The translations under genes were made by a program, and so were the position numbers. From Candidatus Krumholzibacteriota bacterium (GTDB taxonomy: Bacteria; Krumholzibacteriota; Krumholzibacteriia; LZORAL124-64-63): a DNA stretch of 64,000 nt. This document shows, one piece after another, positions 48,596 to 64,000 of this stretch. Numbering within the stretch: the first letter of the stretch is position 1; each line of letters starts with the position of its first letter. The DNA is taken from contig JAJRWA010000048.1 of the NCBI GenBank assembly GCA_024277025.1, forward strand, positions 29,653 through 93,652, written 5' to 3'. The notes under the pieces were generated by a model. The model did no database searches. It had not been told where the DNA came from and was given only the letters and a program-made list of their open reading frames with translations.

Positions 48596-49159
48596 ATGAA
48601 TTCACGCCAGTCCAGGATCCTGCTCAGCGGTGCGCTCGGGGTGTTGCTGTTGGCCACGCTGACCGGTTGCTCCAGCATCTCGGTCAACTATGACTATGAT
48701 CAGAATGCGGCCTTCGGCAGCTACCGAACCTACGCCTGGCTGGGATCTCCGGACACCGGCAACGCGAATCCGGCGGTCAACAAGCTGAGCAGCGATCTGT
48801 TGGACAAGCGGATTCACGAAGCGGTCGATGCCGAGATGGGCAACCGCAACATCACCGCGGCGGACAATCCCGACGTGCTGGTGAAGTACTTCCTCGGCAC
48901 GGAGGACAAGGTGCAGGTCACCGACTGGGGCTATCGCTATTCCGACTACTACTGGGGCCACGGTGGCCGTCAGATCGACGTGACCCAGTACACGGAAGGC
49001 ACTCTCGTGGTCGACATTATCGACGCGGCGACCAAGACTCTGGTCTGGCGCGGTACGGCGACCGGTACGGTTGACGGCCAGCAACGTACCCCGGAGCAGC
49101 TGCAGGAACGCATCAATGAAGTGGTCGCCAAGATTTTTGCCAACTTCCCGCCCAAGTAA
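48596..49159 (+). CDS. DUF4136-like lipoprotein
   Basis: Lipobox LLATLTGCSS. Size and pattern (YDYDQNAAFGSYRTYAW...) resemble the DUF4136 family. Confidence 0.5.
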   Translation: MNSRQSRILLSGALGVLLLATLTGCSSISVNYDYDQNAAFGSYRTYAWLGSPDTGNANPAVNKLSSDLLDKRIHEAVDAEMGNRNITAADNPDVLVKYFLGTEDKVQVTDWGYRYSDYYWGHGGRQIDVTQYTEGTLVVDIIDAATKTLVWRGTATGTVDGQQRTPEQLQERINEVVAKIFANFPPK

Positions 49160-50412: not shown

Positions 50413-51120
50413 CTACTTCTGGACCGGTAGACCGGCTGCGGTCCAGGCCTTGATGCCGCCGTTCAGGTTGGTCACGCTGGTGAAACCGTGGTCGATCAGC
50501 AGACGAGCGGCGACGGTACTGCGGTTGCCCGACCGACAATAGACGAAGACCGGCTTGTCCTTGTACGCCGCCAACTCACCCAGTTTCTCCTGCAGGACCT
50601 GCACCGGCACCAGATGGGCATCCTTGAGATGGCCATCGCTGAATTCTCCGGCCGTGCGCACATCCAGGATGAACGGATCCACGTTGCTGATCAAAGCGGC
50701 GCCTTCGGCGGCGGACACTTCCGCATATCCCGTCGCGACCAGATCCACGGCTGTGATGGCACCTTTGGCCGAACCGGCCGTGAAGGGGTAGCTGCCCACT
50801 TGCGGCACCTTGAAATAGGCTTTCTCGCCCTCGGCCACCGGATAGCTCTTGTTCACGTCGAGGTCGGGGATGACAATCGTGATCGCCTGGCCAGTAGTTG
50901 ATTCCAGACGCACATAATCACCGCGGTATATGGTGAAGTTCTGCGGCTCGGCCGCCGTCGGGTCGACAGTCAGCACCCGCAGGCCGGCTTCGATACGGCC
51001 CGAAATGGCGGGGCCGGCGTGGTCGGCCTGGGACTGGTCGGCCGCTCCGCCACCATTGCAGGCGGCGATGATAATCAGCAGGCTCACGGACAGGATCAGG
51101 ACGGGGATGCGGCGGGCCAT
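50413..51120 (-). CDS. lipoprotein with C-terminal rhodanese-like (sulfurtransferase) domain
   Basis: Trimmed to MARRIPVLILSVSLLIIIAACNGG (ATG 51120, GGAGGA RBS). Rhodanese active-site loop VYCRSGNRS. Confidence 0.65.
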   Translation of the reverse strand: MARRIPVLILSVSLLIIIAACNGGGAADQSQADHAGPAISGRIEAGLRVLTVDPTAAEPQNFTIYRGDYVRLESTTGQAITIVIPDLDVNKSYPVAEGEKAYFKVPQVGSYPFTAGSAKGAITAVDLVATGYAEVSAAEGAALISNVDPFILDVRTAGEFSDGHLKDAHLVPVQVLQEKLGELAAYKDKPVFVYCRSGNRSTVAARLLIDHGFTSVTNLNGGIKAWTAAGLPVQK

Positions 51121-51489
51121 GGATTTCCTCCGGAAGAAATGACAGAGAGCAAATTCCGAACAGTGGGGATTATGTTTACGAAGTGTTGGCATGGCAAGGA
51201 ATTCCGAGCAATCTGGTCGAAAAGGAATTTCCAGAATGTTAGCAAATGTCAAAACATAGGAAATAAATGGGAGATGGCGGTTCCTTAACCGGATTTTAAG
51301 TTATTGAAAATAAATATCATAACGAAGAATGACGCCGTGGATTTTTTTTTTGATTTCCCAAACGAGTCGACTACATTTCTTGCAGTTAAGAAAAATCGCA
51401 ACAAAGAATGTGCGATGCTCCGGAACGGCCCACCCACCCAACCATGGGGCGAGCCCGGGCCTCCGGAAGAACTGCGAAAGGCGCCGCCG
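51121..51489 (+). promoter_or_regulatory. roughly 370-nt AT-rich (about 40% GC) intergenic leader upstream of the mrp/mbx-like operon
   Basis: A marked compositional dip in a 65% GC background. It contains ggaattccgag...ggaatttccag half-site repeats and a T10 run, so it probably holds the operon promoter and operators. Confidence 0.35.
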
Positions 51490-51990
51490 ATGAAGCGTGC
51501 ATTTCCCTTCCTGTTCGTGACGGTGGTCATGTGGCTGCTCTGGCTGGTTCTGGCCGGCAATCTGGATCCCCAGGAAATGCTGGCCGGCGCCGTGGTCGCC
51601 GTGCTGGTGGCGGCCCTGCGCAGCAGCGGACCCTGCCTGCTGGGTGGTCCCGAAGTCCTGCATCCCAGGCGGATTCTCTACGCCCTCGCCTACATCCCCT
51701 ACATGATCTGGGCCATTGTTCTGGCCAACCTGGACGTGGCCGGTCGCGTGCTCCGGCCGCGCCTGAAAATCAACCCCGGCATTGTCAAGGTCCGCACGAA
51801 CCTGCACAGCCAGGTCGGCCGCATGATCCTGGCCAATTCCATCACTCTGACCCCCGGCACCCTGTCGGTGGATATCGTCGGTGACGACATGTACATCCAC
51901 TGGATTGATGTCGAGTCGCGGGATGCCGAAGCCGCCACGCGCAAAATCGCCGCGGGCTTCGAAAAGTATCTGGAGGTCATCTTTGGTTGA
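51490..51990 (+). CDS. mrpE: Na+/H+ antiporter subunit E homolog (MrpE/MnhE; MbhA-like)
   Basis: Trimmed to MKRAFPFLFVTVVMWLLW (ATG 51490). Pattern typical of MnhE (LANLDVAGRVLRPRLKINPGIV...LANSITLTPGTLSVD). Confidence 0.7.
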   Translation: MKRAFPFLFVTVVMWLLWLVLAGNLDPQEMLAGAVVAVLVAALRSSGPCLLGGPEVLHPRRILYALAYIPYMIWAIVLANLDVAGRVLRPRLKINPGIVKVRTNLHSQVGRMILANSITLTPGTLSVDIVGDDMYIHWIDVESRDAEAATRKIAAGFEKYLEVIFG

Positions 51991-52243
51991 TCTGCTGTTG
52001 AAAGCCGCGCTGCAGTTCGCCGGCCTGGCCATTTTGCTGGGTACCTGGCGCCTGCTCAAGGGACCGGACGCGCCCAATCGCGTCGTTGCCCTGGATGTGC
52101 TCACCCTGGTGACCATGCCGTTGCTGGTCGGTCTGGCCATCATGGCTGACCGGGTGATCTACCTGGATGTCGCGCTGGTCTACGCCGTACTCGCCTTCCT
52201 GGGCGTGCTGGCTCTGGCCCGCTACTACGATCGGGGGATCTGA
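51983..52243 (+). CDS. mrpF: antiporter subunit F homolog (MrpF/MnhF; MbhB-like)
   Basis: TTG at 51983 overlaps the mrpE stop. A small 3-TM protein with MnhF-like RLLKGPDAPNRVVALDVL. Confidence 0.55.
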   Translation: MVDLLLKAALQFAGLAILLGTWRLLKGPDAPNRVVALDVLTLVTMPLLVGLAIMADRVIYLDVALVYAVLAFLGVLALARYYDRGI

Positions 52244-52244
52244 G

Positions 52245-52643
52245 ATGACTGATCTGATGCGACTCGTGGGGGCGTCCCTGACCTTTCTGGGGTCCGCGTT
52301 CCTGTTTCTGGGCGCGCTGGGCATCTTCCGCATGCCGGATATCTACAACCGCATGCAGGCCGGCACCAAGGCCACGACCCTGGGCAATATCCTGACCCTG
52401 ACCGGATTGGGCCTGCTGGCGCCGGCCTGGCTGCCCAAGATCATGCTGATCGTGCTGTTCGTGCTGATCACCAATCCCCTCAGTAGCCACGCCCTGGCGC
52501 GGGCGGCCCACCGCAGCGGCGTAACCCTGGCCCGCGAGACGATCTATGACGCTCTGCGCGAGGACGAGGAAGCGGCCGGCATCGGTCCCGGCTCGCCCGT
52601 GGAGATCGATGCGGCGGCCGGAAGTTCAGAGGTGACACCATGA
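52245..52643 (+). CDS. mrpG: antiporter subunit G homolog (MrpG/MnhG; MbhC-like)
   Basis: ATG 52245, 1 nt after the mrpF stop. MnhG-like RMPDIYNRMQAGTKATTLG. Confidence 0.7.
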   Translation: MTDLMRLVGASLTFLGSAFLFLGALGIFRMPDIYNRMQAGTKATTLGNILTLTGLGLLAPAWLPKIMLIVLFVLITNPLSSHALARAAHRSGVTLARETIYDALREDEEAAGIGPGSPVEIDAAAGSSEVTP

Positions 52644-52879
52644 TGTATCTGGATCTGCTGGTCTGCCTGGTCCTGGTCCTGTCCGGCGTGGCGGCCATGA
52701 ATACCCGCAATCTGGTTTCGGCTGCGGTCATGGTCGGCGTCGTCAGCCTGCTGGTCAGCTATCTCTTCCTGCGCATGGGCGCGCCCGACGTGGCGATGAC
52801 CGAGGCGTCCATCGGTGCGGGCCTCAGCACCATCATCTTCCTGATCGCCATCCGGCGCACCGAGGAGGAGGAGCGATGA
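52640..52879 (+). CDS. DUF4040-like small membrane subunit (MnhB N-terminal-domain homolog; MbhD-like)
   Basis: 79 aa with 2-3 TM helices. ATGA overlap with mrpG. Confidence 0.45.
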   Translation: MMYLDLLVCLVLVLSGVAAMNTRNLVSAAVMVGVVSLLVSYLFLRMGAPDVAMTEASIGAGLSTIIFLIAIRRTEEEER

Positions 52880-53589
52880 AACAGATCCTGTCGGTCGTGC
52901 TGCTGCTGGCCATGGGCTGGTTCCTGGTGGGGCTGGTGCCCCTGGGACAACCCACTGAGCCGGGCCGCGTGGCGCAGCACTATATAGACAACGGTATCGA
53001 CGAGAACCGCGGCGCCAACCTGGTGACCAGCGTTATCGTCAACTACCGCGGCTTCGATACGCTCGGCGAGGTGACGGTGCTCTTCCTGTCGGTCGCCGGT
53101 GCGGGCTTCGTCCTGCGGCGGCGCGACGGCCTGGTCCGCCACGAGCACCGGCCCTCAAGTGAGATCCTGCAAACCGGTGCCCGGATGCTCTTTGCGCCGA
53201 TCGTCGTGTTTGGCGCCTACATCTTCGTGCACGGACACCTGTCGCCGGGTGGCGGCTTCCAGGGCGGTGCGGTGATCGCCTCGGCGGTGATGCTGCTGCT
53301 GCTGGCCGATCGTTCCCACCACCTGCCGCACGGCCTGATGCACTGGCTCGAGTCCATGGCCGGCTTTGGCTACGTCATGGCCGGTGTGGCCGGTTTGGTC
53401 GTGGCCGGATCCTTCCTCTCCAACCAGGGCGTGCTGCCCCTGGGCACCTGGAACCGCCTGTTCTCGGCCGGCATCATCCCGATCATCTACATCCTGGTCG
53501 GGCTGAAGGTGGGCACCGAGCTGAGCTCGCTGCTCGACGTGATGATCGACACCGGCCGGCCCGCCCGGCAGGAAGGGGGCCGGTCATGA
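52876..53589 (+). CDS. MnhB-domain membrane subunit (MrpB-like; MbhE/F-like)
   Basis: The canonical MnhB motif NLVTSVIVNYRGFDTLGEVTVLF. ATGA overlap upstream. Confidence 0.7.
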   Translation: MKQILSVVLLLAMGWFLVGLVPLGQPTEPGRVAQHYIDNGIDENRGANLVTSVIVNYRGFDTLGEVTVLFLSVAGAGFVLRRRDGLVRHEHRPSSEILQTGARMLFAPIVVFGAYIFVHGHLSPGGGFQGGAVIASAVMLLLLADRSHHLPHGLMHWLESMAGFGYVMAGVAGLVVAGSFLSNQGVLPLGTWNRLFSAGIIPIIYILVGLKVGTELSSLLDVMIDTGRPARQEGGRS

Positions 53590-53954
53590 ACGCCGTGACG
53601 CCCGCGACCCTGTACCTGGTGACGGCGATCCTGCTGATCCTGATCGGCCTGGCCGGCGTCCTGGTGCGGCGCAATATCCTGAAGATGGTGCTGGGCTTTG
53701 CCCTGGCCGATACCGGCATCAACCTGCTGATCGCCACCCTGGGCAGCAACCCCGAACGCACCGCGCCCATCCTGGACAAACCTGAACTGTTGGCGAACCC
53801 CTCGCTGGTGGTCGACCCGATCCCGCAGGCCCTGGTGCTGACCGCCATCGTCATCGGTCTCGGGGTCACGGCCCTGATGCTGGCCTACGTCATTCGCCTG
53901 TACGCTCTGCGCCAGAGCCTGGACATCCGTGACTTCGGGAGGCTGAAGTGGTAA
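53586..53954 (+). CDS. NuoK/MrpC-like small membrane subunit (MbhG-like)
   Basis: 122 aa, 3 TM helices, NuoK-like MVLGFALADTGINLLIA. Confidence 0.7.
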   Translation: MNAVTPATLYLVTAILLILIGLAGVLVRRNILKMVLGFALADTGINLLIATLGSNPERTAPILDKPELLANPSLVVDPIPQALVLTAIVIGLGVTALMLAYVIRLYALRQSLDIRDFGRLKW

Positions 53955-56900
53955 TCGATCCCATCCTGCTGGTAGCCGTACCGCTTGGTGTTGCTTTCCT
54001 GCTGCCTTTGTTCAGCAAGCTGGGCCGGACCGCGGCCACGGCCGTGCAAGGGCTGACCATCGTGTTCACGGCCCTGGTGGCGGTGTCCTGGTTGCCCGGT
54101 CTGCTGGACGGAAGCCTGGCGCCGGCCAATATCCTGACCGGCGGCTACGACGCCCCGATCGCGATCAACCTGCACTTCGGCTTGACCGAGGCCGTGCTCT
54201 GTCTGCTGGCTTCGCTGACCGCCCTGGGCAGTTTGTCCTACCTGTCGGTGCGCGAAGACGAGCACACGATCGGGCGCAGCGGCCTGCTGCAACTGCTGAT
54301 CATGACCGGTGCCTTCGGCCTGATCATGACCCGCGACCTGTTCAACCTGTTCGTGTTCCTGGAGATCGCTTCCATCGGCACCTACGCCCTGGTCGCCTTC
54401 GGCAAGGAAGAGACCAGCCTCGAGGCCGGCTTCAAGTACATGCTGACCGGCGCGGTGGCGAGCATCTTCCTGCTGATCGGCATCGCCTTCCTGTACAAGC
54501 TGACCGGCACCCTGAACATCGACGACATGGTGGGCCGGATGCCGCCGGCCGCGACGGCGGGCCTGGCTACGGTCATCCTGTTCCTGCTGATGGGCATGGC
54601 CATCGAGCTGAAGCTGCTGCCGGTCAACGGACCGGCCCTGGACCTGTATGACGGCGCGGACCCCGGCGTGATGGCCCTGCTGGTGGGCACCGTGGTCAAT
54701 GGCGTGCTGTTTGCCTTCTGGAAGATCGCCCTGCTGGTGCCCGGCACCTGGGACACGGCGATCATGACCCTGGGCATGGTGACTTTCGTGGGCAGCAACC
54801 TGCTGGCTGTCGCCCAGGATCGGCCGCGGCGCATGCTGGGCTACAGCTCAAGTGCCCAGATCGGCTTGCTGGTCTTTCTGGTGCCCCTGGTGCAACAGGG
54901 CACGGTGGCGTTGGCGGGCGCTGGCCTGCTGTTGATCAACCACACGCTGGCCAAAAGCGGCCTGTTGTGGCTGTCGGGCAAACATGCGGGCGAGACGCGC
55001 CGTGAATGGACCGGTGCCTTTGCCGGCAGCGTGGTGATGCGCACGGCCCTGATCATCTTCATTCTGGCGATCACCGGCTTGCCGCCCTTTCCCGGCTTCT
55101 GGGGCAAGTGGCAGGTCCTGAGCGACCTGATGGCCGGCGGTTACGGCTGGTGGGCGCTGCCGCTGCTGATCGGCTCGCTGCTGGAATTCGTCTACTACTA
55201 CGGCTGGTACCGGTATGTGCGCACGCCGGCGACCAGCAACGTTTCGGCGCGGCCATTGGGCGGGGCTTCCGACCTGGGTGGGGTCGTGGCTTTTGCCCTG
55301 GCCGCGCTGGTTTTCGGCGTGTGGCTCATGCGGGATCTGCCCGTGATGGGTGACCGGGTGCTGGTCTTCCTGACCGGTGTGGGCCTGGTGTTGACGCTGT
55401 TGCGTCGCCTGCCCCGCGTGGTGCTGGCCGCGACCGCGACGGCGGCCCTGGGCCTCGCGGCCTGGATCATGGCCACCGGCGGCGGTTTCGACCTGACGAC
55501 TCCGTCGGGCCTGTTCCACCTGCTGATCATCGGGGCCGGTCTGCTGGTGTCGATCGCCGGTTTGGCCGGCAGCTCGGGCACCGGTGAACGCTTCCACGGT
55601 CTGTTTCTGATCATGATCGCCTCGCTGCTGCTGCTGGTCAGCACCGACAACCTCCTGCTGTTCTTCGTGGCTTGGGAAGTGATGACCTGGACCAGCTATC
55701 TGGTGGTCACCTCCGGCCGGCTGGGCGCCAAACCCGGCCAGCTGTACATGGTGTTTTCCGGCGCGGCCGGCTTCCTGCTGCTCGGCGGGTTCATGCTGGC
55801 CATCGGCGCCGGCCACACCACGATCACCGGTCTGGGTCTGCTGACCGGATCGACGGCGGCCTGGACCTGGGGCCTGCTCGTAACCGGCTTCCTCGGCAAG
55901 TCGGCCGCCTGGGGCCTGCACATCTGGGCACCCGGTGCTTACAGTGAAGCCCCAGACCTGTTCACGCCGTTCCTGTCGGGCGTGATCTCCAAGATCCCCA
56001 TGTTCGGGATCGCCATGGTGGCCTTCCGCATCGCCGCGGGCAACCTGCCGGCCATCGGCGCGGTGGACCTGACCTGGTTGTTGGCGCTGATCGGCGGCCT
56101 GACCGCCTTCGGCCTGACCTTGGCCGCGGTGTTCCAGGAGGATGCCAAGAAGTTGCTGGCCTACTCGTCGGTCGGCCAGGTGGGCTACATCGTGGTCGGC
56201 CTGGCGATCCTGACGCCCCTGGGCTGGACCGCCGCCATGTTCCACGTCGTGCACCATCTCTTGTTCAAGGGCCTGCTGTTCCTGGCCATCGCCGGCGTGA
56301 TCATGCGCACCGGCACGCGCACCATGTACGAAATGGGCGGCCTGATCAAACGGATGCCCGTCAGCTTCATTTCGGTGCTGATCGGCATCATTGCCCTGTC
56401 CGGCGTACCGCCGCTGGCCGGCTTCACCGGCAAATGGCTGCTCTACCAGGCGCTGCTGGCCAAGGGCTGGCTGTTCATTCTGGTGCTGATGATGTTCTCG
56501 TCGGTCGTGGCCTTCATCTATATGTTCCGCCTGATCCACTCGGTCTTTCTCGGGCAGCTCAAGCCCCGGCACCGGGACATCAAGGAGGCGCCGCTGCCCC
56601 TGGTCATCTCCGAGGTGCTGATGATCGCCGGCGTGATGGCCCTGGCGGTGTTCCCGCAACTGCTGCTCAATCCGCTGAACGCCATGATGCACACCCAGTT
56701 CGGCCTGGACGCCCTGCGTATCGACGGCACGGTGCTGACCACCATGAGCGGCCACACACTGAACGCGACAGGCATGATGGTGCTGGTCCTGGTAATGTTC
56801 GTGGCCATGTTCCTGGTGCTGCTTCTGGTCAGCCCGCCCATGCGCAAGATTCGGCAGCTGGACATTGGCTTCGCCGGCGAGGTGCCACCGCCGGCCGAGG

Positions 56901-57115
56901 AAATCCACTTCGCCTCGCGCTTCGCCCAGCCCTACGAGCGGGCCTGGGCACCTTTCCTCAAGCCGCGGGCGACAAACTTCTGGCGGTCGGTGACCGAGAA
57001 CACCGGCGGCGTGATCGAGGCCGTGCGCAAGATCTATTCGGGCAACGGGCAGACCTACGTCCTGTATCCGGTGCTGTTGGTGGTCGTGTTCGCCCTGTTG
57101 GGCCTGGGAAGGTAG
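53948..57115 (+). CDS. fused tandem antiporter-like subunit (two NuoL/M/N-MrpD-type modules in one 1055-aa protein; MbxH+H'-like)
   Basis: GTG 53948 with a GGGAGG RBS. Two complete Proton_antipo_M-type modules, each with the YSS.xQ.G motif (LGYSSSAQIGLLVF at about aa 300, LAYSSVGQVGYIVV at about aa 740) and conserved TM Lys/Glu positions. Confidence 0.75.
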   Translation: MVIDPILLVAVPLGVAFLLPLFSKLGRTAATAVQGLTIVFTALVAVSWLPGLLDGSLAPANILTGGYDAPIAINLHFGLTEAVLCLLASLTALGSLSYLSVREDEHTIGRSGLLQLLIMTGAFGLIMTRDLFNLFVFLEIASIGTYALVAFGKEETSLEAGFKYMLTGAVASIFLLIGIAFLYKLTGTLNIDDMVGRMPPAATAGLATVILFLLMGMAIELKLLPVNGPALDLYDGADPGVMALLVGTVVNGVLFAFWKIALLVPGTWDTAIMTLGMVTFVGSNLLAVAQDRPRRMLGYSSSAQIGLLVFLVPLVQQGTVALAGAGLLLINHTLAKSGLLWLSGKHAGETRREWTGAFAGSVVMRTALIIFILAITGLPPFPGFWGKWQVLSDLMAGGYGWWALPLLIGSLLEFVYYYGWYRYVRTPATSNVSARPLGGASDLGGVVAFALAALVFGVWLMRDLPVMGDRVLVFLTGVGLVLTLLRRLPRVVLAATATAALGLAAWIMATGGGFDLTTPSGLFHLLIIGAGLLVSIAGLAGSSGTGERFHGLFLIMIASLLLLVSTDNLLLFFVAWEVMTWTSYLVVTSGRLGAKPGQLYMVFSGAAGFLLLGGFMLAIGAGHTTITGLGLLTGSTAAWTWGLLVTGFLGKSAAWGLHIWAPGAYSEAPDLFTPFLSGVISKIPMFGIAMVAFRIAAGNLPAIGAVDLTWLLALIGGLTAFGLTLAAVFQEDAKKLLAYSSVGQVGYIVVGLAILTPLGWTAAMFHVVHHLLFKGLLFLAIAGVIMRTGTRTMYEMGGLIKRMPVSFISVLIGIIALSGVPPLAGFTGKWLLYQALLAKGWLFILVLMMFSSVVAFIYMFRLIHSVFLGQLKPRHRDIKEAPLPLVISEVLMIAGVMALAVFPQLLLNPLNAMMHTQFGLDALRIDGTVLTTMSGHTLNATGMMVLVLVMFVAMFLVLLLVSPPMRKIRQLDIGFAGEVPPPAEEIHFASRFAQPYERAWAPFLKPRATNFWRSVTENTGGVIEAVRKIYSGNGQTYVLYPVLLVVVFALLGLGR

Positions 57116-57119
57116 CGCG

Positions 57120-58034
57120 ATGGAACTGTTCCCCAAGATCGGTTGGACCCTGTTGAGCCTGTTCGTGGCCATCAACTACGGGTTCCTCATCAACGGACTG
57201 ATCCGCAAGGTCATGGCCCGGATCCAGGGCCGCTTCGGACCGCCCCTGTGGCAGCCGTACATCGACATGGGCAAGCTGCTGGTGCAGCGCAACTCGATCA
57301 TGCACGGCTACATGCATTGGCTGGGGCCGATCTTCCGCTCGGTCGGCGGCATGGGCGTGTACGTGCTGGTGCCGGTGGTGATCGGCGAACCGCGCCTGGC
57401 CGGGTTCAGCGACATGGGCGATCTGCTGCTGATGATGTACTTCATGTTCTTCGGCTCGCTGGGCATGGCTCTGGGTGCCGGGGATGCCGGTCATCCCCAC
57501 AGCCCGATCGGCGTCAGTCGCGGCCTGAGCCAGATGACGGCCTTCGAAATGCCTTTCATTCTGGCGGTGGTCGCCCTGGCCGCCCACGTGGGCAGCTTCG
57601 ACATCAACGCGATCATCGCCACCCAGCAGCACGGCGTGCTGAGCTGGAACCTGTTCGCCAATCCGTTTGCTTCGGCGGCGGCGTTCCTGGCCCTGCTGGG
57701 CATGAACATGTACGCGCCGTTCAATATCGTGGGGGCGCCGACGGAAATCCCCGTCGGTCCGGCCACCGAGTACCAGAACTCGTACCTGTCGCTGATGATG
57801 ATCGGCCGCAGTGCCCTGGCCATCGGCAAGATGGTCATGTTCATGGACCTTTTCCTCGGCGGGGCGCACTCGATCGGCGCGGCCGTGGTCAAGATCCTGG
57901 CCATTTACTTCTGGTCCGTCTTCGTGGGTGCGGTCTTTCCCCGCTTCCGCACCGAACAATCGGTTCGCTTTTTTTTGCGCTGGCCCACCGCCTTTGGCGT
58001 GGCGGGCGTGCTGCTGACCCAGTGGGTGAGGTAA
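57120..58034 (+). CDS. NuoH-like membrane subunit (MbhM/EchB/HyfC family)
   Basis: NuoH signature region IRKVMARIQGRFGPPLWQPYIDMGKLL. 8 TM helices. Confidence 0.75.
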   Translation: MELFPKIGWTLLSLFVAINYGFLINGLIRKVMARIQGRFGPPLWQPYIDMGKLLVQRNSIMHGYMHWLGPIFRSVGGMGVYVLVPVVIGEPRLAGFSDMGDLLLMMYFMFFGSLGMALGAGDAGHPHSPIGVSRGLSQMTAFEMPFILAVVALAAHVGSFDINAIIATQQHGVLSWNLFANPFASAAAFLALLGMNMYAPFNIVGAPTEIPVGPATEYQNSYLSLMMIGRSALAIGKMVMFMDLFLGGAHSIGAAVVKILAIYFWSVFVGAVFPRFRTEQSVRFFLRWPTAFGVAGVLLTQWVR

Positions 58035-58038
58035 AACG

Positions 58039-58707
58039 ATGAAGAAGTTCGATCCGGATCGACCCTGGGACCTGACGACCCTGCCGACGACCATGGCACC
58101 GCAGGGCTCGCGTCCCCACGCGCCGGTGGAGGACCAGTGCTTCCTCGGCGCCGAGGCCGATATCAAGCAGCCGCCCAAGCTGCAGGAGGCCGTGGCCACC
58201 ATCAAGAACTGGTTCCGGGCCAGCAGCCTGAACGTGCTGGCCTTCGGCACCGGCTGCGGCGCCATCGAGCTGCGTCCGCTGTCGACCAGCCGTTTCGACA
58301 TGTCGCGCTTCGGCATCCCCGGCGCGCCGACACCGCGCCAATCCAACGTGTTCATCATCTCGGGCTACCTGTCGGTCAAGACCCTCACACGCGTGATCCG
58401 CTGCTACGAGCAGATGCCCGATCCCAAGTGGGTCGTCGCCCTCGGCTCGTGCACCATCAACGGCGGCATGTACTGGGACTCCTACAACACGATCAAGGTG
58501 TTGGATCTGTACCTGCCGGTCGACGTCTACGTCAGCGGCTGCATGCCGCGGCCCGAGGCCCTGATCGCCGGTTTCCAGTACCTGATGGACGACGTGAAGA
58601 AAGGCAAGGCCAACGGCTGGCACCACTACCTGGAGAACCTCGAGTGGTACCGCGAGAACCAGAAACAAGTCATCACCGACTGGGATCTTCCCAACTACAA
58701 CTGGTAG
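58039..58707 (+). CDS. NuoB-like [4Fe-4S] small subunit (MbhJ/EchC-like) with roughly 60-aa N-terminal extension
   Basis: FGTGCGAIE, LGSCTINGG and VSGCMPRPEA match the NuoB Cys ligand contexts. The first motif has a single Cys rather than CC. Confidence 0.7.
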   Translation: MKKFDPDRPWDLTTLPTTMAPQGSRPHAPVEDQCFLGAEADIKQPPKLQEAVATIKNWFRASSLNVLAFGTGCGAIELRPLSTSRFDMSRFGIPGAPTPRQSNVFIISGYLSVKTLTRVIRCYEQMPDPKWVVALGSCTINGGMYWDSYNTIKVLDLYLPVDVYVSGCMPRPEALIAGFQYLMDDVKKGKANGWHHYLENLEWYRENQKQVITDWDLPNYNW

Positions 58708-58713
58708 GGAGCC

Positions 58714-59295
58714 ATGTTCGATATCAACCACGGCAATCTCGATGACAGCCCGGATGTGGGCCAGGAAATCGTCCGCCGGATCCACGACCGGTTCGGCGAC
58801 TTCCCCGCACGTTTCCAGAAGGCGGACCTGGTCCGGCTGGACGTGCCGCAGAAGGACATCATCCCGGTGCTGAGTTGGCTGCGCACCGAAACACCCTTCG
58901 TGCAGCTGACCCACCTGACGGCCGTCGACTGGCTGGAGGACGGCCAGTTCGAACTGATGTACCTGGTCACGGCGCCGGACCTGATGGTCAGTCTGCACCT
59001 GTGTGTGCGCCTGGACCGCGCCAAGGCCGAGGCCGAAAGCGTGTTCAACCTCTGGCTGCAGGCCGAGACCTACGAGCAGGAAATCAACGAGATGTTCGGC
59101 ATTCATTTCCCGGGCAGTCCCCGGCAGGGCGTGCCGTTCATCCTCGAGGGCTGGCGGGATATGCCACCCATGCGCCGCGACTTCGACACCGTGGCCTACT
59201 GCGACCGCACCCATCCGGTGCGTCCGGGCCGCGAGCACCAGGACAGCCGCGTGTATGTCGGCCGCAAGTTCGGCGAGAAGGGGTATCTCAAATGA
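58714..59295 (+). CDS. NuoC-like (30 kDa subunit; MbhK-like)
   Basis: Size, position between the NuoB and NuoD homologs, and the ERExxDMFGIxF-like stretch YEQEINEMFGIHF. Confidence 0.65.
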   Translation: MFDINHGNLDDSPDVGQEIVRRIHDRFGDFPARFQKADLVRLDVPQKDIIPVLSWLRTETPFVQLTHLTAVDWLEDGQFELMYLVTAPDLMVSLHLCVRLDRAKAEAESVFNLWLQAETYEQEINEMFGIHFPGSPRQGVPFILEGWRDMPPMRRDFDTVAYCDRTHPVRPGREHQDSRVYVGRKFGEKGYLK

Positions 59296-60476
59296 GCGTT
59301 TTTGACTACACCACCCAGCCGGGCTTCGACCTGATCAGCGAGACGCCCAACGCGGGCACGACCGTCGATCCCAAGGAAGTGCAGCTGTGGTTCGGCCCCC
59401 AGCACCCCGGCATCACCGGCAACATGTCGGTGCAGTTGTGGCTCGAGGGCGACACGATCAAGCGCGGCATCACCCACGTGGGCTATCTGCACCGCGGCTT
59501 CGAGAAGCTGATGGAGCGCCGCAAGTTCATCCAGAGTTTTCCCATCGTCTGCCGCATGTGCGTGGCCGAACCGGACACCACCGAGTACCTGCTGGCCTCG
59601 TCGCTGGAAGAGCTGTCCGGTCTTGACCAGGCCGTGCCGGAAAAAGGCCAGTGGTTGCGCACCCTGGTCATGGAGATGTCGCGCCTGCAGGTGACGCTGA
59701 TGGTCATGGGCGGCCAGGTGGGCACCATGGGCATGGGCACGGCACCCAACTGGACCTACACCCTGCGGGATTTTCTGCTCGACAGCTTCGAAGAGCTGAC
59801 CGGCGGCCGCGTCTATCACATGTACATCACCTACGGCGGTGTGCGGCGCGATCTGACCCCGGGCTTTGCCCAGCGGCTGGAAGCCACCCTGGACCGGATC
59901 GAGGAGCGCCTGCCGTACCTCGACGACCTGATCCTGAACTCGGCCGTGTTCCAGCAGCGCACCCAGGGCGTGAGCGTGGTGCCGGCCGAGTGGGCCGACG
60001 AACTGGGCATCACCGGGCCGGTGCTCCGGGCCATGGGCGTCGCCCGCGACACGCGCCGGGACTATCCCTACCTGAAGTACCCCGAGCTGGACTTCAAGGT
60101 CTGCACCGCCACCGGCAGCGACATCTACGCGCGGACCCAGGTCCGGCGCGCCGAGATCGCCGAGAGCATCCACATCATCCGCCAGATCCTGCAGATGATG
60201 CCGCAGGAGGGGCCCTACTGCGCCAAGCTGCCCAACATGCTGACCTGGACCATCCCGGCCGGCTCGACCTATGTGCGGGCCGAGTCCAGCCGCGGCGAAA
60301 TGGGTTTCGTGATGGTCACCGACGGCAGCGACACGATCCGGCGCGTGCATCTGCGCGGGCCGAGCTACACCAACGCCGTGACGATCCTGGAGCGCATGCT
60401 GCCGGGCATGAACATCGCCGATCTGTCGGCCACCATGGTCTCGCTGCAGACCTGTCCGCCGGAAATCGAGAGGTAA
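59292..60476 (+). CDS. NuoD/[NiFe]-hydrogenase large-subunit homolog (MbhL/MbxL-like) retaining 3 of 4 Ni-Fe ligand cysteines
   Basis: ATG 59292 (ATGA overlap). FGPQHPGITG matches NuoD FGPQHP. The N-terminal CxxC is CRMC, at aa 87 and 90. The C-terminus ends LQTCPPEIER, where a hydrogenase has DPCxxCxxR, so the second Cys is replaced by Glu. Confidence 0.75.
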   Translation: MSVFDYTTQPGFDLISETPNAGTTVDPKEVQLWFGPQHPGITGNMSVQLWLEGDTIKRGITHVGYLHRGFEKLMERRKFIQSFPIVCRMCVAEPDTTEYLLASSLEELSGLDQAVPEKGQWLRTLVMEMSRLQVTLMVMGGQVGTMGMGTAPNWTYTLRDFLLDSFEELTGGRVYHMYITYGGVRRDLTPGFAQRLEATLDRIEERLPYLDDLILNSAVFQQRTQGVSVVPAEWADELGITGPVLRAMGVARDTRRDYPYLKYPELDFKVCTATGSDIYARTQVRRAEIAESIHIIRQILQMMPQEGPYCAKLPNMLTWTIPAGSTYVRAESSRGEMGFVMVTDGSDTIRRVHLRGPSYTNAVTILERMLPGMNIADLSATMVSLQTCPPEIER

Positions 60477-60480
60477 GCGC

Positions 60481-62256
60481 ATGAGCCTGAAGAATGTCAT
60501 CGCTCCGTTTTCGGCCTGGGCCCGTGCGGTCCAGAAACCGTTCACGGTACCCACGGCCGAGACCTTCCGGCCCGGGGCCGACCGCTACCGCGGCTGGCAC
60601 ATCAACGACACCGAGCAGTGCATCGGCTGCGGCACCTGCAGCGACATCTGCCAGAACAGCGCCATCGACATGAAGCCGGTCGACGAACCGAACAAGGGCG
60701 ACAGCGGTCTGCGGCCCCTGGTCGACTACGGTCGTTGCTGCTGGTGCGCCCTGTGCGTGGATGTCTGCCCGAGCGGTTCGCTGGGCCTGAGCAGCAACTA
60801 CATCTGGATCGACCGCGACCCGGATGTGTTCCGCTACATTCCCGGCGTGGACCGGAAGGAATGGGACAGCGACGAGAAGGGCTGGCGCAAGGATGACGGC
60901 TTCAACCTGGTCGACCCGGACCGCGTGCCCATGCCGATGATGATGCCTGTCGAGGACCGGGTGAAGACCTGGGCCGAGGTCGTCCTGGGCTACACCGAGG
61001 CCGAGGCGCGGGCCGAAGCCGCCCGTTGTGTGGAGTGCGGCCTGTGCGTGGCCGCCTGTCCGGCGCACATGCACATTCCCGACTACATCGCGGCGATCCG
61101 CGACGGCCACTACGACGTGGCCGTGAACCACATCTACGACAACAACCCGCTGCCCGAGATGTGCGGCAAGGTCTGCACACGGCGCTGCGAGGATGTCTGC
61201 TCGATCGGCGTCAACGGCGATCCGCTGGCCATCCGCTGGCTGAAGCGCTTTGCGACCGAGCAGTTCAGCGACCTGAGCGCGGTGCTCAGCCACGAGCAGC
61301 CCCAGATCGGCACCGGCAAGTCGGTGGCCGTGATCGGCGGCGGCCCCGGTGGTCTGACGACAGCCTTCTATCTGGCGGTGCGCGGTTTCAAGGTGACGGT
61401 GTTCGAGGCCTTGCCCCAAGTGGGCGGCGCCACGTTCTTCGGCATCCCCAAGTACCGTTTCCCGCTGGGTTCGCTGGAGAAGCAGATCAAGCTGATGACC
61501 GACTGGGGGGTCGAGATCAAGACCAATCACAAGGTTGAGCCTGACGAATTCAAGCAACTGCAGCAGGATTACGATGCGATCTACATCGGCACGGGCCTGT
61601 TGAAACCATCGAGCCTGCGGGCCGAGGGCGAAGATCTGCCCGGGGTGATGCCGGCGATCGAGATGCTGATCGACCACCACCTGGGCAAGACGGTCGAGGT
61701 TGGCCAGCACGTGGTTGTCGTCGGCGGCGGCAACGTGGCCATCGACGCGGCGCGCATCAGCCGCCGTCTGGGCGCCGAGGTGACCATCGCCTACCGGCGC
61801 CGCCTGGAGGACATGCCGGCGGACTACGAGGAGATCGAGGACGCCGAGGCCGAGGGCGTGCACCTGATGACCCAGAACATTCCCCTGCGCGTGGAACAGC
61901 TGCCCGGCGGCCGGCTGGACTTCATCTGGGGCCCGGCCGAGATGATCAGCGAAGGCGGCGGCCGGCCGCGGCCCAAGCTGATCGAAGGCATCGAGAACCA
62001 TCTCGCGGTGGACAAGGTCATCGTGGCCATCGGTCAGAAGCCGGATCTGCGCTGGCTGCCCGCCGATGTGGCCGAGCAGATCAGCAACAGCTGGGGCGGG
62101 ATCACCTGCGACGAGAACGGCATGACCGCCGCGCCGGGCGTGTTTGCCGGCGGCGACCTGGTGAATTCCACGGCCGACGCGATCAGCGCCATCGCCGACG
62201 GGCTCAAGGCTGTCGACGGCATCATCAACTATCTTGGCCTGGGCACCAAGCCGTAA
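60481..62256 (+). CDS. fusion of NuoI-like 2x[4Fe-4S] ferredoxin with GltD/SudA/NfnB-like FAD/NAD(P)H oxidoreductase
   Basis: The N-terminal region has CIGCGTCSDICQ and CCWCALCVDVCP (two 4Fe-4S motifs). Next come CVECGLCVAACP and GKVCTRRCEDVC, the Fe-S domain typical of the GltD small-subunit family. Then AVIGGGPGGLTTAF (FAD) and VVVVGGGNVAIDAA (NAD(P)) Rossmann motifs, and a C-terminal GVFAGGDL. Confidence 0.75.
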   Translation: MSLKNVIAPFSAWARAVQKPFTVPTAETFRPGADRYRGWHINDTEQCIGCGTCSDICQNSAIDMKPVDEPNKGDSGLRPLVDYGRCCWCALCVDVCPSGSLGLSSNYIWIDRDPDVFRYIPGVDRKEWDSDEKGWRKDDGFNLVDPDRVPMPMMMPVEDRVKTWAEVVLGYTEAEARAEAARCVECGLCVAACPAHMHIPDYIAAIRDGHYDVAVNHIYDNNPLPEMCGKVCTRRCEDVCSIGVNGDPLAIRWLKRFATEQFSDLSAVLSHEQPQIGTGKSVAVIGGGPGGLTTAFYLAVRGFKVTVFEALPQVGGATFFGIPKYRFPLGSLEKQIKLMTDWGVEIKTNHKVEPDEFKQLQQDYDAIYIGTGLLKPSSLRAEGEDLPGVMPAIEMLIDHHLGKTVEVGQHVVVVGGGNVAIDAARISRRLGAEVTIAYRRRLEDMPADYEEIEDAEAEGVHLMTQNIPLRVEQLPGGRLDFIWGPAEMISEGGGRPRPKLIEGIENHLAVDKVIVAIGQKPDLRWLPADVAEQISNSWGGITCDENGMTAAPGVFAGGDLVNSTADAISAIADGLKAVDGIINYLGLGTKP

Positions 62257-62267
62257 GGGAGAGCGCA

Positions 62268-62747
62268 ATGGTACGTGAAGGCGACGCGGGCAAGAAGAAC
62301 TTCAGCTCGGTGGACGACGCCATCGAGTTCGCGATCGGGCAGGAGATCAAGGCCGCGAATTTCTACCGCGAATTTGCCGGCAAGGCCACCCATCCGGGCG
62401 TGAAGAAGATGTGCACCGAGATGGCTGTGGAAGAGGACCGGCACAAGGAAATGCTGGAGAAACTCAAGGCCGGGCTGCCCTCCGGGCTGGCGACCGACCG
62501 GGTCACGGACCTGAAGATCAGCGACTATCTGCGCAGCTTCCGCATCGAGCCGGAGGCCGACCAGCAGGATCTGTTGATCGCCGCCATGAAGAGCGAAGCC
62601 CGCGCCGAACAGCTCTACCTGGACCTCGCGGCGATCTGCACCCTGCCCGACGTCAAGGAAGTGCTGTTGCGCCTGGCCGCCGAAGAGGGCGGCCACAAGG
62701 ACGTGTTCGAAAAGGAATACGACGACAATATCCTGGGCTCGAACTGA
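62268..62747 (+). CDS. rubrerythrin/ferritin-like diiron-fold protein
   Basis: Two E..H-type helix motifs (EIKAANFYREFA...EEDRHKEM and EARAEQLY...EEGGHKDVF). Confidence 0.55.
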   Translation: MVREGDAGKKNFSSVDDAIEFAIGQEIKAANFYREFAGKATHPGVKKMCTEMAVEEDRHKEMLEKLKAGLPSGLATDRVTDLKISDYLRSFRIEPEADQQDLLIAAMKSEARAEQLYLDLAAICTLPDVKEVLLRLAAEEGGHKDVFEKEYDDNILGSN

Positions 62748-62753
62748 GCGGCC

Positions 62754-63590
62754 CTACTTGTCGCCGAACCCGGCGCGCAGTTTGTCCAGCAGGTCCAGCG
62801 CCTCGATGTCGTTGGTCGCCGCGATGTCCTTCAATGACTGCTGCGGGTCCACCGTCAGGCCGGCTGCTTCCAGAATGCCGACGGCCTCACCCAGGTCCCG
62901 ATTGTAGTTCTCGCAGAATACGGCCAGGCTCAGCCGCCCCGAGCCCATGGGCATTGAAGTGGGGATCGCTTTGGGACCGGTCGGCCACTGTTCGGCCGGA
63001 CCTTTCATGATCTCGAACAGTTCGTGGGGTGAGAGGCCGTTGTCGTGGGCCAGTTTGGCAATGGTCACGTCCGGATCGGCAACCTCGATACCGGCTGCCG
63101 CCAGATGCGTTTTGGCCACATCCTTGTCCAAACCCACGTTGCGCAGGAATATGCGCAGGCCCGACTCTTCGGCGTGCCCGTAAGGGGGTTCGCCCAGAGC
63201 CAGCGCCGCATCGTCTTTGATTCCCTCACCCAGATTCTGGACCCAGACCATTGGGGGCACTTCCAGCAGCGTCAACGTGGCCACCACCGCCGTCACGCCC
63301 AGGGCCACATTGAAGTTCGGCGTGAAGAGTCGGAAATCCCGTGCCTTGTTCTTCATGTAGCTGGTTACCGGGCGCCAGTTGTAGTAGAGGTGGAAGAATC
63401 CGGCCAGCAGCATCAGGAAGCCTGAATTGGTGTGCAGGTTGCCCCATTGCGTCTTGGTCAGGCCCCATAATGACCAGTCGCTCCAGTAGGCGACCCGCCC
63501 CTGGGGCACGATGAACAGGATGATGCTGGAGGTGAGCATCAGGGCGATTGACATCAGCAGGGTCAACGAAACAATGCGGCGCAAGCTCAC
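62754..63590 (-). CDS. hypothetical integral membrane protein (DUF4405-like N-terminal TM pair plus soluble domain)
   Basis: Two N-terminal TM helices with conserved His/Trp (WGNLHTNSGFLML...FHLYYNW). Convergent with the rubrerythrin gene. Confidence 0.4.
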   Translation of the reverse strand: MSLRRIVSLTLLMSIALMLTSSIILFIVPQGRVAYWSDWSLWGLTKTQWGNLHTNSGFLMLLAGFFHLYYNWRPVTSYMKNKARDFRLFTPNFNVALGVTAVVATLTLLEVPPMVWVQNLGEGIKDDAALALGEPPYGHAEESGLRIFLRNVGLDKDVAKTHLAAAGIEVADPDVTIAKLAHDNGLSPHELFEIMKGPAEQWPTGPKAIPTSMPMGSGRLSLAVFCENYNRDLGEAVGILEAAGLTVDPQQSLKDIAATNDIEALDLLDKLRAGFGDK

Positions 63591-63646: not shown

Positions 63647-64000
63647 CTATCGCCTGTAGGTGAGTCCGAAGACAATCTCGGCCCGAGTGTAGGCGAAAGG
63701 CTCGTTGTTGTTGTCCGCATCCTTGTATCGGTAGCGGATCAGGCCGGTCCAGCGGCTGCTCACAATATAGTCACCAGAGAGCTTGAAATTGAGGTAATTT
63801 TTCTGTCGCAGGTCCTGCGCCGGATCGTGGTCCACGTGGGCGGCATCGTAGCTTTTGCGGCTGTACCTGAGGCTTGCCCCCACCCTGTGGCCGGTGGGCC
63901 AGCGCCAGCCTCCGCCAACTTCGATCGCGGTGCCGGAGTAGTCCCAGTAACCCTCGTACTGGTCGGTGCTGTTGAAGAACTTCAACTCACCGTTGGCCCT
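63647..64000 (-). CDS. outer-membrane beta-barrel-like protein, 3' portion (gene continues beyond window end)
   Basis: Alternating aromatic/hydrophilic beta-strand pattern (RYRYKDADN, EIVFGLTYRR). The ORF is open to the window edge. Confidence 0.3.
   Translation of the reverse strand, partial: RANGELKFFNSTDQYEGYWDYSGTAIEVGGGWRWPTGHRVGASLRYSRKSYDAAHVDHDPAQDLRQKNYLNFKLSGDYIVSSRWTGLIRYRYKDADNNNEPFAYTRAEIVFGLTYRR

Follow-up and report, generated by a model that had tools for sequence, protein, structure and literature searches.

When the NuoI homolog of a membrane-bound complex of the Mbh/Mbx type is encoded as part of a larger flavoprotein, is this an accident of assembly, an oddity of one lineage, or a regular subunit with its own redox partner? 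In the canonical complexes this subunit (subunit N) is a separate protein, as an earlier note on the DNA studied here had stated; its length in the solved Pyrococcus complexes is 208 amino acids (aa) for MbsN and 139 aa for MbhN. The DNA is a 64,000-nucleotide (nt) stretch of contig JAJRWA010000048.1 from a Candidatus Krumholzibacteriota bacterium, referred to below in its whole length as the window. Near its end the earlier note had described a single 591-aa open reading frame (ORF) in which a NuoI-like ferredoxin is fused to a GltD/SudA/NfnB-like oxidoreductase of nicotinamide adenine dinucleotide (phosphate) (NAD(P)H), and had implied that this arrangement was unusual. The ORF was recovered from the ORF listing of the window as one ATG-started frame at 60481..62256 (+), and it is almost certainly a genuine fused subunit of an Mbx/MBS-type complex. 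The implied unusualness did not hold. By sequence comparison, the fusion is the regular form of this subunit in Mbx-type operons of bacteria, an architecture that is conserved in many phyla, is already in print and has a full-length NCBIfam model.

Domain profiles, homologs and a fold match agree on how this NuoI/MbsN-like and NfnB/GltD-like fusion is built. The NuoI/MbsN-like domain (aa 1-120, 60481..60840 (+)) aligns with residues 23-131 of Pyrococcus MbsN, and within it Pfam finds a Fer4 dicluster at aa 43-99 (Fer4_9 42 bits, Fer4_7 41.9 bits). A conserved and nearly ungapped inter-module linker (aa 121-159, 60841..60957 (+)) leads to a Fer4_20 domain (aa 160-262, 60958..61266 (+); 97 bits, cutoff 25.8), which is followed by the domains that bind flavin adenine dinucleotide (FAD) and NAD(P)H (aa 281-574, 61321..62202 (+); Pyr_redox_2 108.7 bits, cutoff 26.1), so that all three Pfam assignments named for checking in the earlier note were matched. 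The cluster ligands of the NuoI domain are C47-C50-C53-C57 and C86-C89-C92-C96 (aa 47-57 and 86-96), in the ferredoxin motifs CIGCGTCSDICQ and CCWCALCVDVCP. Both had been described as CxxCxxCxxxCP; the two motifs are there, and the first ends in CQ instead of CP. The Fer4_20 domain contains CVECGLCVAACP at aa 183-194 and the previously recognized GltD-type signature CTRRCEDVC at aa 232-240, and its eight invariant cysteines (183, 186, 189, 193, 228, 232, 236 and 240) should be enough for two [4Fe-4S] clusters. The two Rossmann motifs that had been noted were located at aa 284-291 (VIGGGPGG, for FAD) and aa 413-420 (VVGGGNVA, the second), and the second fold is followed by Y438-R439-R440, which is invariant in 62 aligned homologs. 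One extra cysteine, Cys87, adjoins the second NuoI-type motif ('GRCCWC', nt 60736-60741, aa 86-87); it is invariant in the 117 aligned sequences described below; neither Pyrococcus MbsN nor the Thermosipho ortholog has it.

The gene begins 4 nt past the stop codon of the nuoD-like gene and has a ribosome-binding-like GAGAGG 8 nt 5' of its ATG. A 650-aa antisense ORF at 60316-62268 (-) overlaps the whole gene, and further long overlapping ORFs occur throughout the window. Given a guanine-cytosine (GC) content of 64% in the window, these are probably artefacts of composition; the domain matches and the homologs with E = 0 belong to the + strand ORF.

Two neighbouring genes, mbxN and an nfnB/gltD-like gene, could in principle have been joined by mis-assembly or by a missed stop or frameshift at nt 60,840-60,960. 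We found no positive support for such an artefact and give it practically no credence. In a homolog search of 5.8 billion proteins, for which all figures rest on the at least 120 homologs listed, 116 of the listed proteins were full-length matches of 570-680 aa, with 50-91% identity, about 99% query coverage and E-values down to 0; the orthologs with the same fusion that had been proposed as a check are thus numerous. The named sources of the listed fusion homologs include Planctomycetota, Acidobacteria, Myxococcota, Deltaproteobacteria, Caldithrix, Bacteroidales and Spirochaetes. About 15 representatives of a library clustered at 50% identity reach across the junction; these proteins are about 575-765 aa long. 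Independent assemblies with an uninterrupted fusion ORF were used in place of a read-coverage test, and such assemblies were found at 91%, 84%, 55%, 52% and 44% identity, the Thermosipho melanesiensis genome included. The closest of the genome matches (L001, 91% identity) is a Candidatus Krumholzibacteriia metagenome-assembled genome (MAG).

The conservation alignment, composed of the query and the 116 homologs (117 full-length sequences), had 100% conservation of all 17 cysteines of the cluster regions (nine in the NuoI domain and eight in Fer4_20). In the linker region (aa 101-160) gaps amounted to 0-5% and the mean identity to the query residue was 44-51%. The codons of the junction (aa 101-165) differed mainly synonymously from those of two independent assemblies, with 17 synonymous and 8 nonsynonymous differences from L001 and 20 synonymous and 10 nonsynonymous differences from L004 (84% identity). 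An AlphaFold2 model of the protein, built with 62 sequences, reached a mean predicted local distance difference test score (pLDDT) of 87.9 and a predicted template modelling (TM) score of 0.82; the predicted structure is compact and confident through the linker, where the pLDDT is 83-91. Mis-assembly was therefore rejected, and the fusion cannot be taken for an assembly artefact because homologs from many phyla keep its frame, its cysteines and its ungapped linker. A scan of genome contigs with peptide patterns taken from the fusion protein returned three loci only, the patterns being too specific.

The family to which the protein belongs can also be read from the NCBIfam models. NuoI models covered aa 7-121 and NfnB/gltA/GltD-type models aa 156-585, all under their cutoffs (62.2 against 113.05 bits for TIGR01971, 312.9 against 471.75 for the NfnB/gltA equivalog TIGR01316, and 256.9 against 482.95 and 181.2 against 447.7 for the GltD equivalogs TIGR01317 and TIGR01318). 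One model, NF010590/PRK13984 ('putative oxidoreductase'), matched almost from end to end, with aa 2-585 aligned to model positions 7-606 of 611, at 568.3 bits under a cutoff of 946. The protein has the PRK13984 architecture and belongs to a more distant subgroup. No single chain in PDB spanned both modules in a Foldseek search, the best query-normalised TM score being 0.70.

The gene order around the fusion identifies the complex. The fusion gene is the twelfth of 13 ORFs in a tightly packed + strand operon at 51490-62747, in which the Mbx/MBS subunits from MrpE to NuoI are complete and co-linear (51490-62256 (+)). The operon family assignments agree with the earlier description of the fusion as the terminal redox subunit of an Mbh/Mbx-type operon. 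The order ending in the fusion is kept in L004, in a Caldithrix abyssi MAG (L005/L006, 55%), in Pleomorphochaeta (L007, 52%) and in Thermosipho melanesiensis (L008, 44%). Thermosipho melanesiensis has this operon too, including the fusion and the rubrerythrin-like gene behind it, and the operon of the window is therefore the 'Mbx' of Thermotogae (examples being the 13-gene cluster of Thermosipho and the mbx operon of T. maritima), whose genes run mrpE-F-G, mbhD, mbhE, a nuoK-like gene, two mrpD-like genes, nuoH, B, C and D, the NuoI::GltD-like fusion and a rubrerythrin/ferritin-like gene. The Thermosipho protein (ABR31076.1, 616 aa, L008 10001-11851) is 44% identical across the junction and has the same eight Fer4_20 cysteines and the same eight canonical NuoI-domain cysteines. 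It differs in having no Cys87 and no YRR motif, its operon differs in having separate MrpD-like genes and a cysteine at the position equivalent to MbsJ C25, and the lineage of the window differs from Thermotogae in being GC-rich and related to Krumholzibacteriia.

A genome analysis of Thermotogae in 2015 described NuoI as replaced by a gltD-related flavoprotein, which was read as the NAD(P)+ site, and remarked that the mbx-like operon frequently ends with rubrerythrin (PMC4758237). According to our alignments NuoI is not replaced there; it is still present as the flavoprotein's N-terminal domain, Thermosipho included. Later literature on Thermotogae takes up either an NADP:ferredoxin model (a Mesotoga preprint, with reference to Schut 2013) or the model of a sulfur reductase that depends on ferredoxin (PMC9431562), and the fused module is discussed in neither source; Mbx is mentioned only in passing elsewhere (PMC6349859, PMC6085437). 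In the operon of the window subunit N is not a stand-alone ferredoxin-accepting protein, and in this the operon matches the Thermotogae form and not the Pyrococcus form.

The genes of the operon were assigned one by one. The first encodes an MrpE/MnhE-like membrane subunit in the MbsA position (51490..51990 (+), start approximate), which was located by tblastn with the L004 gene of family PF01899 (MNHE; 72% over 166 aa, 51490-51987); the ORF at 51408-51884, considered as the first gene of the operon, was rejected, having no family match and lying in another frame than the MrpE-like gene. An MrpF/PhaF-like gene in the MbsB position (51983..52243 (+); Pfam MrpF_PhaF 57 bits, tblastn with L004 MrpF 66% identity) and an MrpG/MnhG-like gene in the MbsC position (52167..52643 (+); NCBIfam antiporter subunit G 119.8 bits, Pfam PhaG_MnhG_YufB 87.6 bits) follow. 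The tblastn match of the latter covers 52248-52607, and its true start is probably near 52236-52248. Next come an MbhD-like gene (MbsD position, 52640..52879 (+); Pfam MbhD 77.8 bits), an MbhE/MnhB-like gene (MbsE position, 52876..53589 (+); Pfam MnhB 86.7 and MbhE 38.8 bits, NCBIfam antiporter subunit B 199 bits) and an MrpC/NuoK-like gene (MbsG position, 53586..53954 (+); NCBIfam antiporter subunit C 75.9 bits, NuoK models matching less strongly). The positions of MbsH and MbsH' are occupied by one double MrpD/NuoN-NuoM-type gene of 1055 aa (53948..57115 (+)), with NuoN/NuoM/MrpD models matched at aa 3-419 and 514-1051. This pair is a single ORF in the window, L004 and L007 and two genes in Caldithrix (L005) and Thermosipho (L008). 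The remaining genes before the fusion encode a NuoH-like membrane anchor (MbsM position, 57120..58034 (+); NCBIfam NuoH 108 bits), the NuoB/MbsJ-like subunit of the proximal [4Fe-4S] cluster (58039..58707 (+)), a NuoC-like protein (MbsK position, 58714..59295 (+); NCBIfam NuoC 73.6 bits) and the NuoD/MbsL-like large subunit (59292..60476 (+)), which matches 6u8y_L from end to end.

The last gene of the operon, 62268..62747 (+), encodes a rubrerythrin/ferritin-like four-helix protein of 159 aa (Pfam Rubrerythrin 65.5 bits), which has two ExxH motifs and lacks a rubredoxin domain. The gene starts 11 nt past the stop codon of the fusion gene, with a ribosome-binding-like AGGGAGA upstream, and a gene of this kind also follows the fusion in L001, L004 and Thermosipho (L008); the protein is probably an accessory protein of the operon. 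There is also a weak match between this protein and NCBIfam PRK12775, a family that combines a ferritin domain, the part matched, with a GltD-like module in one fusion. In Caldithrix (L005 12244-13212) the gene after the fusion is not rubrerythrin-like and belongs to DHO_dh (dihydroorotate/dihydropyrimidine dehydrogenase-type); DPD likewise joins a GltD-like module and a DHO_dh domain.

Outside the operon, a gene for a 279-aa protein with a rhodanese C-terminal domain lies upstream in divergent orientation (50413-51252 (-)). It was considered as a link to sulfur metabolism and dropped, as it is not found beside the operon in the other loci. Downstream, the opposite strand carries a DUF4405 membrane protein (62754-63590 (-)) and a short ORF (63647-63985 (-)) with a weak match to the MtrB/PioB outer-membrane porins (E = 5e-4). 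In the window (48596-49159 (+)) as in Caldithrix (L005 19156-20396), a DUF4136 lipoprotein-like gene is located no more than a few kb from the operon, a co-occurrence that may be coincidence. In Thermosipho (L008 16553-17893) a 446-aa Pyr_redox_2/Pyr_redox_dim protein with the architecture of CoA-disulfide reductase/NSR is encoded about 4.7 kb downstream of the mbx cluster.

What the complex reduces or oxidises at its membrane end is suggested by the subunits of the peripheral arm. For the NuoD-, NuoB- and NuoI-like parts the best solved relative is the membrane-bound sulfane reductase (MBS) of Pyrococcus furiosus (PDB 6U8Y). The NuoD-like protein matched MbsL (6u8y_L) at 3e-88, compared with 4e-58 for Nqo4 and 8e-40 for MbhL (6cfw_L); the NuoB-like protein matched MbsJ (6u8y_J) at 2.2e-63 and MbhJ (6cfw_J) at 1.8e-24; and the NuoI-like domain of the fusion matched MbsN (6u8y_N) at 1.7e-21, Nqo9 at 3e-9 and MbhN at 1e-7. 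By these values the peripheral arm is much closer to Pyrococcus MBS than to MBH or complex I. The likeness extends to the Mrp module with two MrpD-like subunits, to the absence of quinone ligands, to the motif of the proximal cluster and to a vestigial cysteine pair in the large subunit. The NuoD-like protein has no complete NiFe site, its motifs VCRMCVAEPD and CPPEIER keeping the equivalents of MbsL C85 and C385 together with one additional cysteine three residues ahead of the former. In the NuoB-like protein the motif FGTGCG (near aa 69-74) stands in place of FCTGCG of MbsJ. The equivalents of C28, C93 and C123 are kept and that of C25 is a glycine, and therefore only three cysteines are available for the proximal cluster. 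The same state was seen in L001, L004, L005 and L007, whereas Thermosipho keeps the fourth cysteine like Pyrococcus; in the subgroup formed by the window and these four loci a three-cysteine proximal cluster thus appears to be fixed by sequence. In MBS the fourth cysteine, C25, is a dispensable non-ligand, and the three-cysteine cluster is the proposed site of polysulfide cleavage and catalysis (PMC7684303). Two differences from the Pyrococcus complex stand out. Its MbsN is a stand-alone protein whose clusters receive electrons from ferredoxin (PMC7684303), whereas the fusion adds about 430 residues of an NADPH/FAD/iron-sulfur flavoprotein; and the operon of the window carries the appended rubrerythrin-like gene.

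The same data bear on whether the complex might be an NADPH:quinone oxidoreductase, an analogue of complex I in which the fused flavoprotein stands in for NuoEFG and the NuoD/NuoB pocket serves for the reduction of menaquinone. The arrangement of NuoH, B, C, D and I with antiporter-like subunits would suit such an enzyme, and the large span in potential between NADPH and menaquinone would readily support pumping. The opening of the MBS chamber is as wide as that of complex I (PMC7684303). However, the quinone ligands H38 and Y87 of Nqo4 align with Thr42 and Val91 in the NuoD-like protein, and the proximal cluster is of the MBS three-cysteine type and not of the tandem-cysteine type of complex I. 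The Thermotogae, which carry the same complex, are reported to lack quinones. We regard quinone reduction as very improbable.

The C-terminal module points to the nucleotide end of the electron path. Its assignment as GltD/SudA/NfnB-like was upheld by matches of about 1e-82 to 5vj7_A and 5jca_L, and in the AlphaFold2 model the C-terminal ~470 residues superimposed on NfnI-L (5jca_L) in Foldseek with a TM score of 0.87, a root-mean-square deviation (rmsd) of 2.5 Å and 37% identity. Over the NfnB-type large subunits in general (NfnB, NfnI-L and NfnII-L; 5JCA_L, 5VJ7_A and 4YLF_B) the TM scores were 0.85-0.87 and the rmsd 2.5-2.9 Å, and the shared features include a two-cluster Fer4_20 domain, an FAD site and an NADPH site with AYRR. 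In the alignment with 5vj7_A the YRR of the fusion matches the AYRR of the NADPH-dependent NfnII-L. The Thermosipho fusion has SLER after the second Rossmann fold, at the place of the YRR of the window protein and NfnII-L, and the preference for NADPH or NADH may differ within the fusion family. Modules of this type are also fused to other redox modules in NfnABC/StnABC-type enzymes (9BOV_A, 9N5U_A and 8OH5_C; 1e-74 to 1e-82), which shows that the NfnB-like unit is portable, an NADPH module able to join larger iron-sulfur enzymes. There the partners are molybdopterin-like or other domains in soluble complexes, none of them on a complex-I-type membrane arm.

Relatedness to NfnB invites the idea of a bifurcating, confurcating or three-way enzyme, in which the NfnB-like flavin would divide or combine electron pairs among NADPH, ferredoxin docked on the NuoI-like domain and an acceptor at the membrane site, and in which the diiron rubrerythrin-like protein might join as a further high-potential partner. 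The module is indeed nearer to the NfnB subunits of bifurcating Nfn complexes (37-41% identity) than to GltD (30%) or DPD (26%), the ferritin-like gene trails the fusion from Thermotogae to the lineage of the window, and PRK12775 is a precedent for a ferritin domain fused to a GltD-like module. Against this, an NfnA/SudB-type partner (FNR-like, [2Fe-2S]), which NfnB enzymes have, was found neither in the operon nor among the scanned genes (~38.6-64 kb of the window), and the same holds for a GltB partner. In NfnB one of the clusters is ligated by three cysteines and one glutamate. The fusion has eight invariant Fer4_20 cysteines, of which C228 aligns with a non-cysteine residue in NfnII-L, and its first Fer4_20 motif (CxxCxxCxxxCP) is four residues shorter than that of NfnII-L. 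A single iron-sulfur chain leaves the flavin within the fusion polypeptide, which also speaks against branching, and we consider a bifurcating enzyme improbable.

What the sequences show is the fusion with its cofactor-binding motifs, the operon around it and signatures of the MBS type; which way the electrons flow, the use of NADPH, a sulfur compound as the acceptor and the pumping of ions are inferred. The fusion would be the electron-input subunit of an Mrp-derived, ion-translocating membrane complex of the Mbx/MBS type. NADPH would reduce the FAD, and single electrons would pass through the two Fer4_20 [4Fe-4S] clusters and then the two clusters of the NuoI domain to the three-cysteine proximal [4Fe-4S] cluster of the MbsJ-like subunit, above the chamber of the MbsL/MbsM-like subunits, so that five [4Fe-4S] clusters, besides the FAD, would connect NADPH with the acceptor. 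At the proximal cluster polysulfide, a sulfane-sulfur compound, would be reduced as in Pyrococcus MBS, in a reaction that would drive the translocation of H+ or Na+ through the Mrp module and the pair of MrpD-like subunits. The whole electron chain appears to be in use because the NfnB-like module is joined to a ferredoxin-receiving two-cluster domain and the ligands of the downstream cluster are conserved. The 4.4-fold induction of mbxA by S0 in T. maritima (PMC9431562) was counted in favour of a sulfane mechanism. Altogether we find this mechanism plausible and prefer it, with a caution that stops short of calling it probable.

Several points weigh against it. The couples NADPH/NADP+ (about -320 mV) and polysulfide/sulfide (about -260 to -270 mV) are close, and therefore little energy would be available for pumping. 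Mesophilic fermenters commonly carry the fusion (among them Fermentibacteria, WOR-3, Bacteroidales and Spirochaetes), and for these organisms general redox balancing may be a better fit than sulfur respiration. The Thermosipho ortholog lacks YRR, so that nucleotide specificity may vary among members of the family. The link to sulfur within the window is weak; the gene for the divergent rhodanese is not conserved in the other loci. Finally, in the older literature Mbx is treated as a ferredoxin:NADP+ oxidoreductase (PMC4758237; Mesotoga preprint).

This last view is the main rival. In it the complex would be an Rnf-like, ion-translocating ferredoxin:NAD(P)+ oxidoreductase, with ferredoxin as the donor, NADP+ reduced by the flavoprotein and H+ or Na+ pumped. 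Ferredoxin and NADP+ lie about 100-180 mV apart, a difference well suited to pumping, the NfnB-type modules with known structures belong to ferredoxin-linked Nfn/Stn complexes, and the wide spread of the family in fermenters fits redox balancing. The model is the published assumption for the Mbx of Thermotogae (PMC4758237; the Mesotoga preprint, which refers to Schut 2013). The Mbx of Pyrococcus, from which it was derived, is, however, now treated as the sulfane reductase MBS (PMC9431562, PMC7684303). A separate entry site for ferredoxin is not evident in the complex. In complexes of this superfamily it is at the MbsL/MbsM-type chamber that ions are moved by coupling to redox chemistry, and electrons moving from the NuoI-domain clusters to FAD would bypass both this chamber and the proximal cluster, which are strictly conserved. 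On balance we hold the ferredoxin:NADP+ oxidoreductase to be somewhat unlikely.

For the preferred reading, NADPH-driven reduction of sulfane sulfur, a functional parallel is the N-module of complex I (NuoE/F/G), which is likewise a nucleotide-oxidising flavin module that feeds an iron-sulfur chain through NuoI to the NuoB cluster. No homologs of NuoE, NuoF or NuoG were found in the operon, and the fused module would take over their role. The parallel is one of function only, the two modules being unrelated proteins with different flavins (flavin mononucleotide (FMN) in NuoF and FAD in the GltD-type fold) and different nucleotides (NADH and probably NADPH). The earlier proposal that the fusion hard-wires NAD(P)H as the redox partner is a reasonable inference in this light, and published genome analyses of the Mbx of Thermotoga arrived at the same (PMC4758237). 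A more far-reaching statement is that the NfnB-like module turns an MBS core into an NADPH-driven, ion-pumping sulfane reductase and constitutes a second, independently evolved nucleotide-oxidising input module of the complex I kind, in which the rubrerythrin-like protein as an extra redox partner, or ferredoxin as a third substrate, might also apply. We offer this as a possibility that is open to considerable doubt.

These results add a lineage related to Krumholzibacteriia to the carriers of Mbx-type complexes that have their NAD(P)H module built in, and indicate that the fused form of Mbx is the rule across many anaerobic phyla. The question that the locus raises is thereby one for the whole family, namely whether NADPH is oxidised to reduce sulfur compounds or ferredoxin is oxidised to make NADPH, two assumptions that are both used in metabolic models of Thermotogae. 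The three-cysteine proximal cluster and the invariant YRR are concrete targets for biochemistry on this point. Should NADPH turn out to be the donor, evolution would in this complex have arrived independently at a means of doing the work of the N-module of complex I.

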